Of a stretch of DNA of 64,000 nucleotides, positions 8,379-32,212 are shown piece after piece. Source of the stretch: Thermoanaerobaculia bacterium (GTDB lineage Bacteria > Acidobacteriota > Thermoanaerobaculia > Multivoradales > Multivoraceae). The stretch spans positions 960,001 through 1,024,000 of the forward strand of contig OY761158.1 of NCBI GenBank assembly GCA_963664405.1, in the 5' to 3' direction. The notes beneath the pieces are model-generated. The model worked only from the letters and a program-made list of their open reading frames with translations, had not been told where the DNA came from and searched no databases. Position 1 is the first letter of the stretch. Each line of letters begins with the position of its first letter. The translations under genes were made by a program, and so were the position numbers.

Positions 8379-8557
8379 CTAGACGAGCGTTTCCGAAGTT
8401 CGAGTCGCATAGCTCGAGGTCATTCTGTTCGCTGGCAAGGCGCGCCGACGCAGGCATATTGGGAATCTGTCGAGGAGCGCGGGGGCGCCTAGCCAACGCC
8501 GCCAGCGGGCAGAAGGGGCCGAGATAGGTAGCGCGAACTTTGGAAACGCTGGTCTAG
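8379..8557 (+). repeat. CTAG-bounded palindromic MITE-like element, copy 1 (179 bp, 13 bp longer than copies 2-4)
   Basis: Ends CTAGACGAGCGTTTCCGAAGTTCG and CGAACTTTGGAAACGCTGGTCTAG; closely matches copies at 17479, 20204 and 32047. Confidence 0.9.
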
Positions 8558-15903: not shown

Positions 15904-17333
15904 GGAGAGCGCTCCGTAGCCAACTCCGAGCGACGGTGGGCGAAAACGCTAGCCGGGAGCTCGAGAGTAAAGAGGCTCCCCTGCCCCACTTCGCTGCTGA
16001 CACCAAGGCGAAGCCCGCTCCGTTCGGTGAAGAGTTTCGTACGCAACAAATCGAGGCCGACACCGCCGGCCTTGTAGTCGTAGGGATGCCCCGAACTGTA
16101 ATCCTCGGTGCGACCGGCATGAACAAAGCCCGAAAACAGCTGATCGACGAGCTCGGCGTCCATGCCCACGCCAAAGTCTCGCACACGTAGCTCGATCTCT
16201 CCGCCGCTGTCTTCGAGCTCGACCCGAACCTCGCCGCCGTCAGCGGTGGCCTCGATCGCATTCCGAATGAGCCCGATCACGGCTTTCCTCAGGGGCGCTT
16301 CAGGCAAGCGCACCGAGGGGCAAACCTCGAGACAGAGCTTCACCTCCACCGCACGATGGCGATGAAGAGGAGCGATCTGCGCCACCACCTCGGCGACCCA
16401 GTTCTGCAGCAGAATCTCGACTTCCTCGTCATCGCGCCCTTCGGGGTAGAGCGCTTCGAGGCGACCGACGAGCTGAGCCATGGCGGCCGAGGTCGGACTC
16501 TCTTCCGCCACCCAGCAGGCGAGAAGATCGTGACAGCGGCTGTGCCAGGCATCGTCTCTCCGCTCCTCGCCGCGATCCTCCGCGTTGGCAATATCGGCGG
16601 CTTCGGTCTGCAGCTCGGTGAGGCGACCGAGGCTTCTCCGCGCCCGTTCCAGGATTGCCTCGAAACGGGCATCGTCCTGCCGCACCGAAGGCCTGCCGAG
16701 CAATCTCGAAGCCGAGGCAATGATGGCGAGCGGTGTCTTCAGCTCATGCGACAGGTGATCGATCATCTTCCGCTGCGCCTTAGCTACCGTTTCGAGGCGC
16801 GCATGGGCCTCCCGTAGCTCCTTCCATACCCTGGCATTGTGCAGGCTCACCGCCAGGATCGATTGAATGATCAGGAGGCTCTGCAAGGTCGCGGTATCGA
16901 TCGGCGACGGGTTTATCCTCTTCACCGTGACCACACCGAGCACCTGGTTTGAAGCCTGCATGAGCGGCACACATAGGCACTCTTTCCCATCGCTGGGCGC
17001 CTCTGCCCGGGGGAAGGGTACGGCTACATCCGAGTCCAGCGCATAGGACTCCGGCGCCTTCGATCGCAAGACGGCGCCAAAGACGCTACCCTCGACGGGT
17101 ACAGCGTCCGCCTCGCAATCGCTCACAGTCGAAGATGATCGCTCGAGATGCAGGAAGTCGCCGCTGGCGTCGAGAAGGAATATCGCCACTCCCTCACCGC
17201 CAGAGAAGTCCGAGAGGGCCTCGACACCACGATCCAGAATGGTCTCTCGGTCATCGTCGGCGAGCAGCAGACGAACCGCGAAGCTGAGGAGAGCGAGGCG
17301 CTCGGAGCCATCAAGGTTGGAGATCTGCGACAT
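15900..17333 (-). CDS. GAF-domain sensor histidine kinase
   Basis: N-terminal GAF (CVPL..GV, HNAR), SHELKTPL, RNAIEA, DFGVGM. Confidence 0.88.
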   Translation of the reverse strand: MSQISNLDGSERLALLSFAVRLLLADDDRETILDRGVEALSDFSGGEGVAIFLLDASGDFLHLERSSSTVSDCEADAVPVEGSVFGAVLRSKAPESYALDSDVAVPFPRAEAPSDGKECLCVPLMQASNQVLGVVTVKRINPSPIDTATLQSLLIIQSILAVSLHNARVWKELREAHARLETVAKAQRKMIDHLSHELKTPLAIIASASRLLGRPSVRQDDARFEAILERARRSLGRLTELQTEAADIANAEDRGEERRDDAWHSRCHDLLACWVAEESPTSAAMAQLVGRLEALYPEGRDDEEVEILLQNWVAEVVAQIAPLHRHRAVEVKLCLEVCPSVRLPEAPLRKAVIGLIRNAIEATADGGEVRVELEDSGGEIELRVRDFGVGMDAELVDQLFSGFVHAGRTEDYSSGHPYDYKAGGVGLDLLRTKLFTERSGLRLGVSSEVGQGSLFTLELPASVFAHRRSELATERSP

Positions 17334-17463
17334 CTCGGCGTCGAGCCTTGCCGTCGGCTGTTAGTCTCGCCCGAGGGCGAACTATAGCAGCGCAGGTCCT
17401 CCCGCACTTCTCGCGGGTCCTCCGCACAGACTCGCGGACCGGCGCTAGGGGAAGGGATTGGAC

Positions 17464-18177
17464 ATGGCACGCATTCCACTAGACCAGCGTTTCCAAAGTT
17501 CGTGGTGCATAGCTCGAGGTCATTCTGTTCGCTGGCAAGGCGCGCCGACGCAGGCATATTGGGGAATATGTCGAGGAGGCGCAACGCCGTCAGCGGACAG
17601 AAGGAGCCGAGATATGTGCGCGAACTTTGGAAACGCTGGTCTAGTAGACCCGAAGACGAGCGAGGGCTACGCCTCGAAGGTGTTCGAAGCGCAAGAGAGA
17701 ACCTGGGGAGCACCGCTTCTCAACCATCGGATCTATGCCCGGCGACCGGCGCTACTAAGAGCGGTAAGGGGCATGTGGACAGGATTGAACGACGGCGGAC
17801 TCCTCGATGACACGCTGTTGGCCCTGGTCAACCGCCGCGTCGCGGGCTTGAATGGCTGCGTCTTCTGAGCGGATCTCAACGCTGCAGTTGGCAGCGCTCT
17901 GGGAATCGCAGACAAGAAGCTGCTCGCCGTCGAGATCTACGCCACGAGCCCGCTGTTCAGCGATCGAGAGCGTGCCGCTCTCGAATACGCCGATGCCATC
18001 ACGCTGTCGGACCGCGACTTGAGCGAGGCTCTATTCGCTCGCTTACGGCGCTTCTTCGACGAAGACGACGTTGTCGAATTGACCGCAGCCATCGCCTGGG
18101 AAAACTCTTCGAGCAAGTTCAACCGCGCGCTCAGAATCGAGTCCCAGGGCCTCTGGAAACCCGATCGAGTGGGCTGA
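17464..18177 (+). CDS. AhpD/carboxymuconolactone decarboxylase-like probable selenoprotein (CVFU) with an in-frame 54-codon repeat insertion
   Basis: RVAGLNGCVF-TGA(17866)-ADLNAAVG...FSDRERAALEYADAIT...VVELTAAIAWEN..SKFNRAL continues in frame; hairpin follows the TGA. Confidence 0.85.
17479..17644 (+). repeat. Palindromic MITE-like element, copy 2 (166 bp), inside the AhpD-like gene
   Basis: Perfect terminal inverted repeat CTAGACCAGCGTTTCCAAAGTTCG. Confidence 0.92.
17869..17896 (+). promoter_or_regulatory. Putative bacterial SECIS element
   Basis: 11 nt after the TGA: stem CGCTGC, loop AGTTG, stem GCAGCG. Confidence 0.6.
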
Positions 18178-18246
18178 GGCCGTGCAGCGAGACGGGGCCT
18201 CGTGGCGGCGCGCAGCCAGTGGCCGGCGGTGGCATATGATGGGACG

Positions 18247-19563
18247 ATGCGAAGACTGAATCAGGTGAAGCTGCTCTCGCTGGTCTTGATGCTGGCGCTC
18301 AGCCTCACTACCACCGCCTGCGACGTTCAGTCGCGGGCCGACATCCCCGCGCCCCAGCCGCGCAATCTGAGCCCGGCGTCCCCAGAGGATGTTGGTATGT
18401 CGACCGAGCGCCTCGGCCGTCTCTCGGTAGCGATGCAGAACATCGTAGACGAGGGCGAGCTCGCCGGCATCACGAGCATGGTGGCTCGTCGCGGCAAGGT
18501 CGTCTACGCCGAGACCTTCGGCCATCAGGAGATCGCCTCCGACACGAAGATGGATATCGACACCATCTTCCGCATCTATTCGATGTCCAAGCCGATCACC
18601 GGAGTGGCCATGATGCTTCTCTACGAAGAGGGCAAGTTCCGACTCTCCGACCCGGTTGAGAAGTACATCCCCGAGCTCGAGGGCCTCGAGGTCGCAGCCG
18701 GCGAGGGGAAGGACGGGCCCATCGTGGAAGAGGCCGACCACCCAATGACCATCCGCGAGCTGATGAGCCACACCGCTGGGCTCTCCTACGGCATCTTCTC
18801 CCAGTCCCAGGTCGACGATATGTACCAGGAGGTCAATGTCCTAGATTCGAAATCGACGCTGAGAGATATGATCGAGAAACTGTCGAAGATCCCGCTTCGC
18901 CAACAGCCCGGCTCGCTCTGGCACTACAGCGTGGCGGTAGATGTACAGGGCTATCTCGTCGAGGTCCTGTCCGGCAAGTCCTTCGACCAGTTTCTCGAAC
19001 AAAGGATCTTCGAGCCCCTCGGAATGAGCGACACCGCATTCCACGTGCCCCCTGAGAAGACCGATCGCTTTGCCCAGGTTTACTCTTATGACGAGGACAG
19101 GGATCTAGTCGCCCGGGAGGGCGGCGGCGGGTCGCGGAGCTACTTCGAGCCTGCGACGTTCTTCTCAGGCGGTGGCGGGTTGGTCTCGACCACCATGGAC
19201 TACATGCGCTTCTGTCAGATGCTCTTGAACGGTGGAGAGCTCGACGGCGTAAGACTGCTCTCCCCGCTCACTGTCGATCTCATGCACCGCAACCAGCTCC
19301 CTCGAGAGATGGGTGAGATGTCCCCGGGAGGCGGTACCGGCTTCGGTCTCGACTTCGCCGTGGTCCTGGACCCAGTCGCCGCCGACGGAGTGTCGAGAGG
19401 CGAGTACTACTGGGGTGGCGCCGCCGGCACATGGTTCTGGATCGATCCGGCCGAAGACTTGGTCTTCGTCGGCATGATCCAGCAATTCGGGCAAGGCCGA
19501 CCCGATCTTCGGTCGCTGTCTCGAAGGCTCACCTACCAAGCCATCGTCGACTCCGATAGCTGA
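18247..19563 (+). CDS. Serine hydrolase, beta-lactamase class C-like (lipoprotein)
   Basis: FRIYSMSK (SxxK), HTAGL, WHYS, WGGAAGT. Confidence 0.9.
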   Translation: MRRLNQVKLLSLVLMLALSLTTTACDVQSRADIPAPQPRNLSPASPEDVGMSTERLGRLSVAMQNIVDEGELAGITSMVARRGKVVYAETFGHQEIASDTKMDIDTIFRIYSMSKPITGVAMMLLYEEGKFRLSDPVEKYIPELEGLEVAAGEGKDGPIVEEADHPMTIRELMSHTAGLSYGIFSQSQVDDMYQEVNVLDSKSTLRDMIEKLSKIPLRQQPGSLWHYSVAVDVQGYLVEVLSGKSFDQFLEQRIFEPLGMSDTAFHVPPEKTDRFAQVYSYDEDRDLVAREGGGGSRSYFEPATFFSGGGGLVSTTMDYMRFCQMLLNGGELDGVRLLSPLTVDLMHRNQLPREMGEMSPGGGTGFGLDFAVVLDPVAADGVSRGEYYWGGAAGTWFWIDPAEDLVFVGMIQQFGQGRPDLRSLSRRLTYQAIVDSDS

Positions 19564-20203: not shown

Positions 20204-20369
20204 TAAGACCAGCGTTTCCAAAGTTCGTGCTGCATAGCTCGAGGTCATTCTGTTCGCTGGCTAGGCGCGCTGACGCAGGCATATTGGGAAATATGTCGAG
20301 GAGGCGAAACGACGCCAGCGGGCAGAAGGGCCCCAGATATGTGCGCGAACTTTGGAAACGCTGGTCTAG
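20204..20369 (+). repeat. Palindromic MITE-like element, copy 3 (166 bp)
   Basis: Same termini (left end TAAG instead of CTAG); intergenic between the pdxH-like gene and recQ. Confidence 0.9.
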
Positions 20370-32046: not shown

Positions 32047-32212
32047 CTAGACCCGCGTTTCCAAAGTACGTGCTGCATAGCTCGAGGTCATTCTGTTCGC
32101 TGGCTAGGCGCGCTGACGCAGGCATATTTGGAAATATGTCGAGGAGGCGAAACGACGCCAGCGGGCAGAAGGGCCCGAGATATGTGCGCGAACTTTGGAA
32201 ACGCGGGTCTAG
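32047..32212 (+). repeat. Palindromic MITE-like element, copy 4 (166 bp)
   Basis: Terminal repeat carries a compensatory pair change (GACCCGCG...CGCGGGTC). Confidence 0.92.

Follow-up and report, generated by a model that had tools for sequence, protein, structure and literature searches.

An in-frame miniature inverted-repeat element fifteen nucleotides after the start of a probable selenoprotein gene in an Acidobacteriota genome

How might a gene still be read when a long palindrome has entered it 15 nt after the start codon? The question is raised by a 64,000-nt stretch of DNA (hereafter the window) from a Thermoanaerobaculia bacterium of the phylum Acidobacteriota, contig OY761158.1, positions 960,001 to 1,024,000. 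The window is G000:C1:960001-1024000 of a genome assembled as a single contig of 6.78 Mb (62.6% G+C). The interrupted gene encodes a probable selenoprotein related to YciW and AhpD, and the palindrome is one copy of a family of transposable elements of the miniature inverted-repeat type (MITEs) that is dispersed through the genome. We consider it likely that this was a recent insertion of the IS630/Tc1-mariner style, that the reading frame stays open as a consequence of the make-up of the family, and that the protein is still expressed. A first-pass annotation, made from the letters of the window, had read the locus as a palindromic mobile element lying in frame within a probable selenoprotein gene. 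The terminal repeats, hairpin, and genomic copies of the element and the conserved TGA, downstream hairpin, and selenocysteine machinery of the host bear out both identifications.

The features of the locus are as follows.
17464-18177, plus strand: YciW/AhpD-like (CMD family) gene with the insert, a probable CxxU selenoprotein gene; 237 residues if read through
17464-17481, plus strand: native start and first six codons (MARIPL), 5' of the insert
17479-17644, plus strand: MITE copy, CTAG to CTAG, 166 bp, recognized from its sequence, terminal inverted repeats, fold, genomic copies, and empty alleles
17479-17502, plus strand: left terminal inverted repeat, 24 nt, a perfect match to the right arm
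17621-17644, minus strand: right terminal inverted repeat, 24 nt
17866-17868, plus strand: in-frame TGA read as selenocysteine (C-V-F-U)
17872-17907, plus strand: hairpin 3' of the TGA resembling a selenocysteine insertion sequence (SECIS), with core stem CGCTGC/GCAGCG and a 5-nt loop

The insert and its host gene

The insert is bounded by terminal inverted repeats (TIRs), and the 24-nt arm has eight matches in the window, which correspond to four copies, versus 0.00 expected in 100 shuffles. As RNA, 17479-17644 folds into a single long hairpin of -115.1 kcal/mol (z = -12.0), and none of 200 shuffles was as stable. The element has TIRs, is short (166 bp, nearly all of it in the one hairpin), and carries no transposase gene, as is typical of MITEs. 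Its first base lies 15 nt after the start of the gene, and the base of the hairpin begins 11 nt past the A of the native ATG (at +12). The junctions read ATG GCA CGC ATT CCA CTA / GAC CAG ... GGT CTA / GTA GAC CCG. A permissive Rfam scan of 17300-18300 gave for the hairpin only a plant microRNA-precursor match that was below threshold (34.3 versus 200 bits). The same scan returned one chance match to an internal ribosome entry site and no match to a SECIS family or to a Rickettsia palindromic element (RPE). A consensus scan of 17300-17750 found no promoters or terminators.

By blastn the element matches 246 places in the genome; near-full copies account for 129 of them, with 67 on the plus strand and 62 on the minus strand. 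Most copies are close to the focal one in length: 64 are 166 bp, 20 are 165 bp, 19 are 167 bp, and two are 164 bp, and the remaining 24 form a class of 177-180 bp. CTAG is found at both ends of 106 of the 129 copies. In the copies with unequal ends the differing base is on the flank side in 11 cases and on the element side in two. Because flank-side differences outnumber element-side differences in this way, the most likely process is duplication of TA inside a preferred CTAG (an NTAN target), and a 4-bp duplication is less likely. The first-pass annotation had given the duplication as CTAG or, equivalently, TA; a duplication is indeed seen, and the asymmetry of the ends favors TA. The TA model leaves 160 bp (17482-17641) for the element proper and implies a net gain of 162 nt. 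This combination of target and duplication is probably the signature of an IS630/Tc1-mariner transposase, an assignment based on the target and duplication only.

When 17464-18177 is translated with TGA as selenocysteine (Sec, U), the product is MARIPL followed by 54 insert residues and then VDPKTSEGY..., a total of 237 residues. Apart from the terminal TGA, the frame contains a single stop codon, the TGA at 17866-17868. The 177 codons that follow the insert contain no further stop and no frameshift, and the gene gives no sign of decay. The NCBIfam model NF053654, 'YciW-related (seleno)protein', matched with 269.8 bits, below its curated cut-off of 310, its positions 7-178 of 179 aligning with residues 61-232. 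The insert falls exactly between profile positions 6 and 7, and between codons 6 and 7 of the gene. The Pfam CMD domain (PF02627) matched above cut-off (32.9 versus 23). Judged by these sequence matches the host protein is a close relative of NF053654 that falls short of strict equivalog membership. The N-terminus typical of the family, M-x-R-I/V, is encoded before the element, and all 16 sequences of the alignment share its Arg3. A start downstream of the element, which the first-pass annotation had named as an outcome that would overturn its reading, is unlikely by homology; a start inside the element is a further candidate and is taken up below.

We regard the host as a probable CxxU selenoprotein gene because the TGA is conserved, a SECIS-like hairpin follows it, the genome encodes SelA, SelB, SelD, and tRNA-Sec, and a marine CxxU family of this kind is known. 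In five orthologous loci of relatives (63, 65, 55, 37, and 41% identity) the TGA is at the same place and the insert is absent, and homologues P0020, P0036, P0050, and P0052 have Cys at the Sec position. The SECIS-like hairpin lies 14 nt 3' of the TGA, and a consensus over six sequences has 11 pairs, two of them with compensatory changes. The fold of the focal sequence by itself does not outperform shuffles (z = -0.35). The genome contains selB (339.8 bits), selA (423.1 bits), two selD genes (362.1 and 242.9 bits), and a tRNA-SeC. The known family is AhpD-like 1 (COG2128, CxxU), of which 299 selenoproteins are reported in the Global Ocean Sampling survey and which is abundant in the sea (PMC2398784). 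The focal gene resembles that family in its CxxU motif and its CMD/YciW homology. It differs in the insert, which none of the homologues examined possesses: it is absent from 15 of 15 aligned homologues, and the TIR and core are absent (at up to four mismatches) from 80 of 80 metagenome loci, among which no relative exceeds 70% identity.

Two side observations concern selenocysteine decoding in general. One of the selD genes (G000:C1:388007-388930) has its own in-frame TGA, suggesting a Sec-containing SelD. Among the public metagenome homologues (for example P0002-P0019) some have W at the Sec position and some are called only as a C-terminal half of about 99 residues; these look like cases in which gene callers mishandled the TGA.

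Natural alleles with and without the element

The search for an empty allele, which the first-pass annotation had proposed to make among orthologues, could be made in natural populations. Logan contigs of four sequencing runs were aligned to 17250-18250; three of the runs are X7, X9, and X1, and the empty alleles come from two other studies. A 644-nt contig of run X9, a seawater metagenome whose molecule type is recorded as 'DNA?', joins 17478 to 17641 and thereby skips exactly 162 nt. Four letters at its junction, CTAG, fit both sides. The empty site that the first-pass annotation had reconstructed by removing the element, ...CCA CTA GTA..., thus exists as a natural allele. In a 3226-nt contig of run X7, whose record gives no molecule type, 17479 is joined to 17643 with one C between, giving a CCAG site and the N-terminus MARIPPVDPK, in which Pro replaces Leu. 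The X1 contigs extend from both unique flanks into the element, show no difference, and represent the filled allele, independently assembled. These contigs cross both junctions and therefore rule out an assembly artefact. Because the same gene is found without the element in two other runs, the insertion is real, precise, recent, and polymorphic.

Over the coding sequence X7 and X9 differ from the window by seven substitutions (a hand count), six at third codon positions and one that changes Leu to Val. This pattern shows overall purifying selection on the gene, which cannot be dated to the time since insertion.

The first-pass annotation had also pointed to the identical CTA codons on either side of the hairpin as a hint that the insert is removed from the RNA or bypassed by the ribosome, from CTA to CTA, which would restore a protein of 183 residues. 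In outline only, a very stable hairpin between identical codons resembles phage T4 gene 60, where ribosomes reportedly pass from a take-off to a landing codon. However, the target duplication by itself gives every copy such matching codons, which hence are no evidence for such a process. There is no stop after the first CTA, and the 162-nt gap is about three times that which gene 60 is said to have. The X9 and X7 contigs that skip the element differ from the window at other sites as well and thus represent other strains rather than processed RNA. Finally, the frame and length bias described below shows that the coding content of the copies matters, which is unexpected if they are skipped. We consider removal or bypass extremely improbable.

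A separate difference lies outside the gene: the X9 strain with the empty allele also lacks 21 nt of the upstream intergenic sequence (17418-17438).

Frame properties of the family and expression of the interrupted gene

Within a gene a CTAG site offers two usable phases (the third makes TAG) and two orientations of the element, giving four configurations. In the 64 copies of 166 bp, three of these configurations are stop-free in 61, 63, and 61 copies, respectively, whereas the fourth is open in two and has a single stop in the others. A standard copy makes a net addition of 162 nt, a multiple of three (3n), or 54 codons. Since the standard copy adds 3n nucleotides and three of four configurations are stop-free, an in-frame stop-free insert is the default of this family and nothing special to the host gene. 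The exact count of 54 stop-free codons in the first-pass annotation agrees with the translation, and the insertion is in frame as it stated; the frame is not remarkable in itself, being expected in three of four configurations of any 166-bp copy. When the element was shuffled by pair position, 1.9% of the shuffles had three or more open frames, whereas 18% of random genomic windows did; the excess of open frames is no more than suggestive of design rather than luck.

An open frame by default is also what would be found if the insertion had silenced the gene, leaving a null allele that is a young pseudogene yet to decay. The hairpin at +12 could block 30S ribosomal subunits at the native ATG and bury the internal ATG described below, or RNase III could cut the duplex. 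The -115.1 kcal/mol hairpin beginning 11 nt past the A of the ATG, the displacement of the conserved Arg3, and the coexistence in nature of empty alleles, by which the insertion is recent, all fit such a silencing. So does the cleavage by RNase III of Correia-element hairpins in mRNAs (as given in PMC10969869). Silencing is a serious rival explanation, if an unlikely one. Set against it are the 177 codons after the insert without stop or frameshift, the intact SECIS-like hairpin, and the behavior of other copies of the family.

Nineteen read-through open reading frames (ORFs) with family copies were tested against Pfam. Thirteen have domain support, with the copy within the first 2-24 codons, as listed here by locus.
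L060: PD40 / amidohydrolase
L061: DUF3604
L062: sulfatase
L063: M20 peptidase
L064: metalloprotease
L076: metallo-beta-lactamase fold
L077: amidohydrolase
L078: SBP_bac_5
L079: sulfatase
L082: DUF3604
L083: GSDH / cytochrome c
L084: sulfatase
L085: DUF3604

In most of the 13 the sequence after the copy contains, as judged by eye, a hydrophobic core like those of signal peptides or lipoproteins, for example MT, copy, RLLAPILGVVVAAALTGAC. A further gene, L059 (G000:C1:1662648-1663232, minus strand), encodes a PIN_3 protein in which the domain is matched in two stretches and an in-frame copy occupies residues 51-105. In-frame stop-free insertion into unrelated genes is therefore recurrent, being found in the focal gene, the 13 Pfam-supported genes, and the PIN_3 gene. 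Loci L058, L065, L067, and L080 gave no Pfam match and were not counted, nor was L081, where the true start probably follows the element. At least 13 other Pfam-supported genes with N-terminal in-frame copies argue against silencing as the general outcome. Another copy of the family does, however, break up a long ORF: in L066 (2260-2437; G000:C1:3112759-3112936) a 178-bp copy divides an ORF of about 1518 residues. The upstream ORF of 517 residues stops on the border TAG, and an ORF of 1122 residues starts inside the element and keeps the old frame.

Frame bias was then counted across the genome on a gene map drawn with a home-made codon-usage score, which had been trained on long ORFs and gave the correct frame on 93% of 80-codon windows. 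We counted element sides that abut a codon-supported gene body without a stop, leaving 46 sides after one duplicated locus and 21 stop-bearing sides were dropped. The focal copy, whose ORF was cut by the caller at the Sec codon, is not among them. Copies of 3n length make up 19 of the 28 sides in open configurations versus 4 of the 18 in closed ones (Fisher p = 0.006). For 3n copies in the non-TAG phases, 1 of 20 sides is in the closed configuration, where 25% are expected (p = 0.024). A lack of frame bias among intragenic copies would have told against the first-pass annotation; a bias is present. These counts suggest selection for frame-preserving insertions, and we propose that frame-keeping copies are the ones that selection tends to spare, chiefly at the very 5' end of coding regions. 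The association of 3n length with open configurations is hard to explain if insertions are simply null. It also favors translation from upstream through the copies, because internal restart would be indifferent to copy length.

At the focal locus the reading that we prefer is that a non-autonomous, CTAG-targeting, TA-duplicating MITE recently entered a YciW/AhpD-like selenoprotein gene by transposition at codon 6/7 and that protein production continued, by either of two routes. In the first, ribosomes would start at the native ATG and read through, giving an enzyme of 237 residues in which residue 6 is followed by 54 floppy inserted ones. In the second, they would start at an element-borne AAGGAG-N7-ATG and give a 187-residue enzyme with 10 new N-terminal residues. 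By either route the hairpin of -115 kcal/mol, which begins 11 nt past the A of the native ATG, would probably lower the efficiency of initiation. Neither would require recoding, splicing, or bypass for the insert. An AlphaFold2 model (built on a 16-sequence alignment) has pLDDT scores of about 89-98 for the enzyme body and below 50 for residues 1-45. In the model the insert behaves as a disordered N-terminal tail that need not disturb the fold.

The second route depends on one further feature of the right arm.
17601-17616, plus strand: candidate internal start, AAGGAG at 17601-17606, 7 nt, and an in-frame ATG at 17614-17616, giving MCANFGNAGL-VDPK..., 187 residues

Restart at this site, a fourth outcome that may be added to the three given in the first-pass annotation, might even have replaced the native start, such that the main product comes from ATG 17614 behind AAGGAG and the native ATG with the first 50 codons becomes a leader. 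The A at 17605 that makes the AAGGAG is private to the focal copy (1 of 129), and the other forward-frame copies within genes keep the ordinary GGGG. AGGAG is found 5-20 nt upstream of 11.2% of confident starts versus 2.1% in background (about fivefold), whereas the usual GGGG of the family precedes 6.8% versus 4.5% and is hardly enriched. The private G to A change thus turns a barely enriched motif into one enriched about fivefold. Moreover, this Shine-Dalgarno (SD) sequence is in a mismatched part of the stem, and the consensus element has an in-frame ATG near its exit in all four configurations. However, ATG 17614 is inside the paired stem, the private A has no confirmation from an independent run, and the other forward-frame copies have GGGG. 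An in-frame ATG arising by chance within 54 codons is the expected case (an estimate, not a computed value). Note that copy length would be irrelevant to such starts, and yet 3n copies are enriched in open configurations. We find replacement of the start rather unlikely.

Several points count against the reading in which the protein is still made from an IS630-type insertion. The insertion is young, so that an intact gene body is not proof of function. The hairpin at +12 also buries the internal ATG, and both starts could be poorly used. The invariant Arg3 is moved 54 residues from the enzyme body by read-through, or lost on restart, and either change may impair the enzyme. The RNA-labelled run X20 gave a single contig (17250-17338), which lies within the neighboring kinase gene and hence is no transcript evidence for the host gene. 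A17605 comes from the assembly alone, with no locus-specific X1 contig over it, and could be a sequencing error. The frame-bias count depends on a home-made caller and 46 sides, with one copy counted on both sides. In the search for an IS630 parent, two NF033545 matches scored above cut-off, and neither locus has the 24-nt TIR at up to five mismatches. Lastly, an argument for adaptation of the family is partly post hoc.

That argument would run as follows. With its 3n length, three open frames, and outward ATG, the family would be adapted to the 5' ends of coding regions, where it could enter immediately after start codons, those of signal peptides and in the present case that of a cytoplasmic selenoprotein, and leave the gene alive. 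At the focal locus the G to A change would have made an SD sequence, so that the MITE is being co-opted as an initiation region while the two alleles segregate in the sea. We hold this to be doubtful. What we infer for the focal gene is that protein is produced, with read-through from the native ATG the start that the length bias favors.

Known elements and other observations on the family

In-frame insertion of MITEs is an already known phenomenon in Rickettsia, enterobacteria, and Coxiella, and in-frame fusions have been reviewed for RPEs, ERIC, BOX, Correia, and Yersinia elements (PMC10969869, PMC2229807, and PMC5896051). RPEs, to which the first-pass annotation aptly compared the insert, are palindromic repeats of about 150 bp that lie in frame in many unrelated genes, each adding a stop-free peptide, and a guanylate kinase bearing an RPE is translated and active (PMC10969869, PMC2229807). 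The likeness is functional and carries no claim of sequence membership, the present host being of the Acidobacteriota rather than Rickettsia. Moreover, the present family has clear CTAG/TA target signatures, and polymorphism of the empty site can be demonstrated for it. Its copies within genes cluster in the first 25 or so codons, whereas RPEs are found on protein surfaces throughout genes.

RUP of Streptococcus pneumoniae is likewise short, with TIRs, insertion at TA, and about a hundred copies. It differs in that its ends match IS630-Spn1 and in being intergenic, according to PMC2229807; in the present genome no resident transposase element with matching ends was found at the two loci above the IS630 cut-off. 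The Correia elements of Neisseria and the ERIC and YPAL elements of enterobacteria are also hairpin MITEs, co-transcribed and with some frames fused to genes. A Yersinia element supplies part of a signal peptide, and processing of the hairpin by RNase III or RNase E modulates mRNA levels (PMC2229807, PMC10969869). Unlike these elements, the present family breaks into signal peptides or N-termini that were already there and creates none. Insertions of the QMITEs of Coxiella burnetii change the ends of genes or sit in frame inside ORFs (PMC5896051), in most cases at 3' ends or in hypothetical genes, whereas the copies described here are 5'-proximal and in Pfam-supported genes. A full-text literature search (MITE in-frame, IS630, Acidobacteria, signal peptide), with supplements outside its scope, listed no paper about this family or about MITEs within genes for selenoproteins.

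The case belongs to a phylum that has been little studied and to a lineage that is present in a seawater metagenome, and is among the few in which an exact empty allele has been seen in nature beside the filled one. This makes the two natural alleles available for comparison, by which the effect of a 54-codon hairpin 15 nt after the start of a UGA-recoding gene could be measured. The frame and length bias of the family can be measured, its copies strikingly favor the first few codons of genes for apparently exported proteins, and it could serve for studies of how mobile coding inserts are tolerated, or put to use, by proteins. Annotation is affected as well: gene callers will place the start of such genes wrongly or break them in two.

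Besides the focal copy the window contains three copies of the family.
8379-8557, plus strand: family copy, 179-bp variant
20204-20369, plus strand: family copy, 166 bp, left end TAAG
32047-32212, plus strand: family copy, 166 bp

Among the comparison genomes G000 is the sole member of its genus, and 56 others belong to the same family-level group. Full-length copies were found only in G000, and 14 of the 56 match the central core only, at 73-93% identity. A 45-nt end present in four genomes of another genus was considered as the end of an insertion sequence (IS) and rejected. It is instead a solo MITE end that coincides exactly with the TAG stop of an SDR-type gene (L074 2511-2555 in G018, and also in G063, G064, and G071), and could be the relic of an old copy at an orthologous position.

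Some units with half-elements at their flanks were likewise tried as the parent and set aside. The 2.7-kb units (G000:C1:6272417-6275122 and 6758844-6761549) carry an IS91-like gene and a tyrosine recombinase, and the 3.6-kb unit (6281697-6285334) is an IS21-like element; these labels come from ORF translations. All three units are nested in MITE copies. About 30 near-identical copies of a 498-residue ORF (for example 71938-72711) have a weak match to the IS630 model (45.5 bits) and represent an abundant insertion sequence.

The family has at least four sister repeat families that run from CTAG to CTAG, are of similar length, and share a core of about 100 nt, with quite different TIRs. By blastn class these have 16, 27, 7, and 11 copies (for example 81413-81516 and the 590622-690691 region). 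In the sister families the core is better conserved than the ends, the reverse of the MITE norm. CTAG itself is about threefold under-represented genome-wide, with 7502 sites versus 23230 expected from base composition, and element borders make up a noticeable share of the genomic CTAG sites. Finally, about 380 nt separate a 167-bp copy (G000:C1:4307341-4307507) from the 3' end of selB (4307890-4309767, minus strand).

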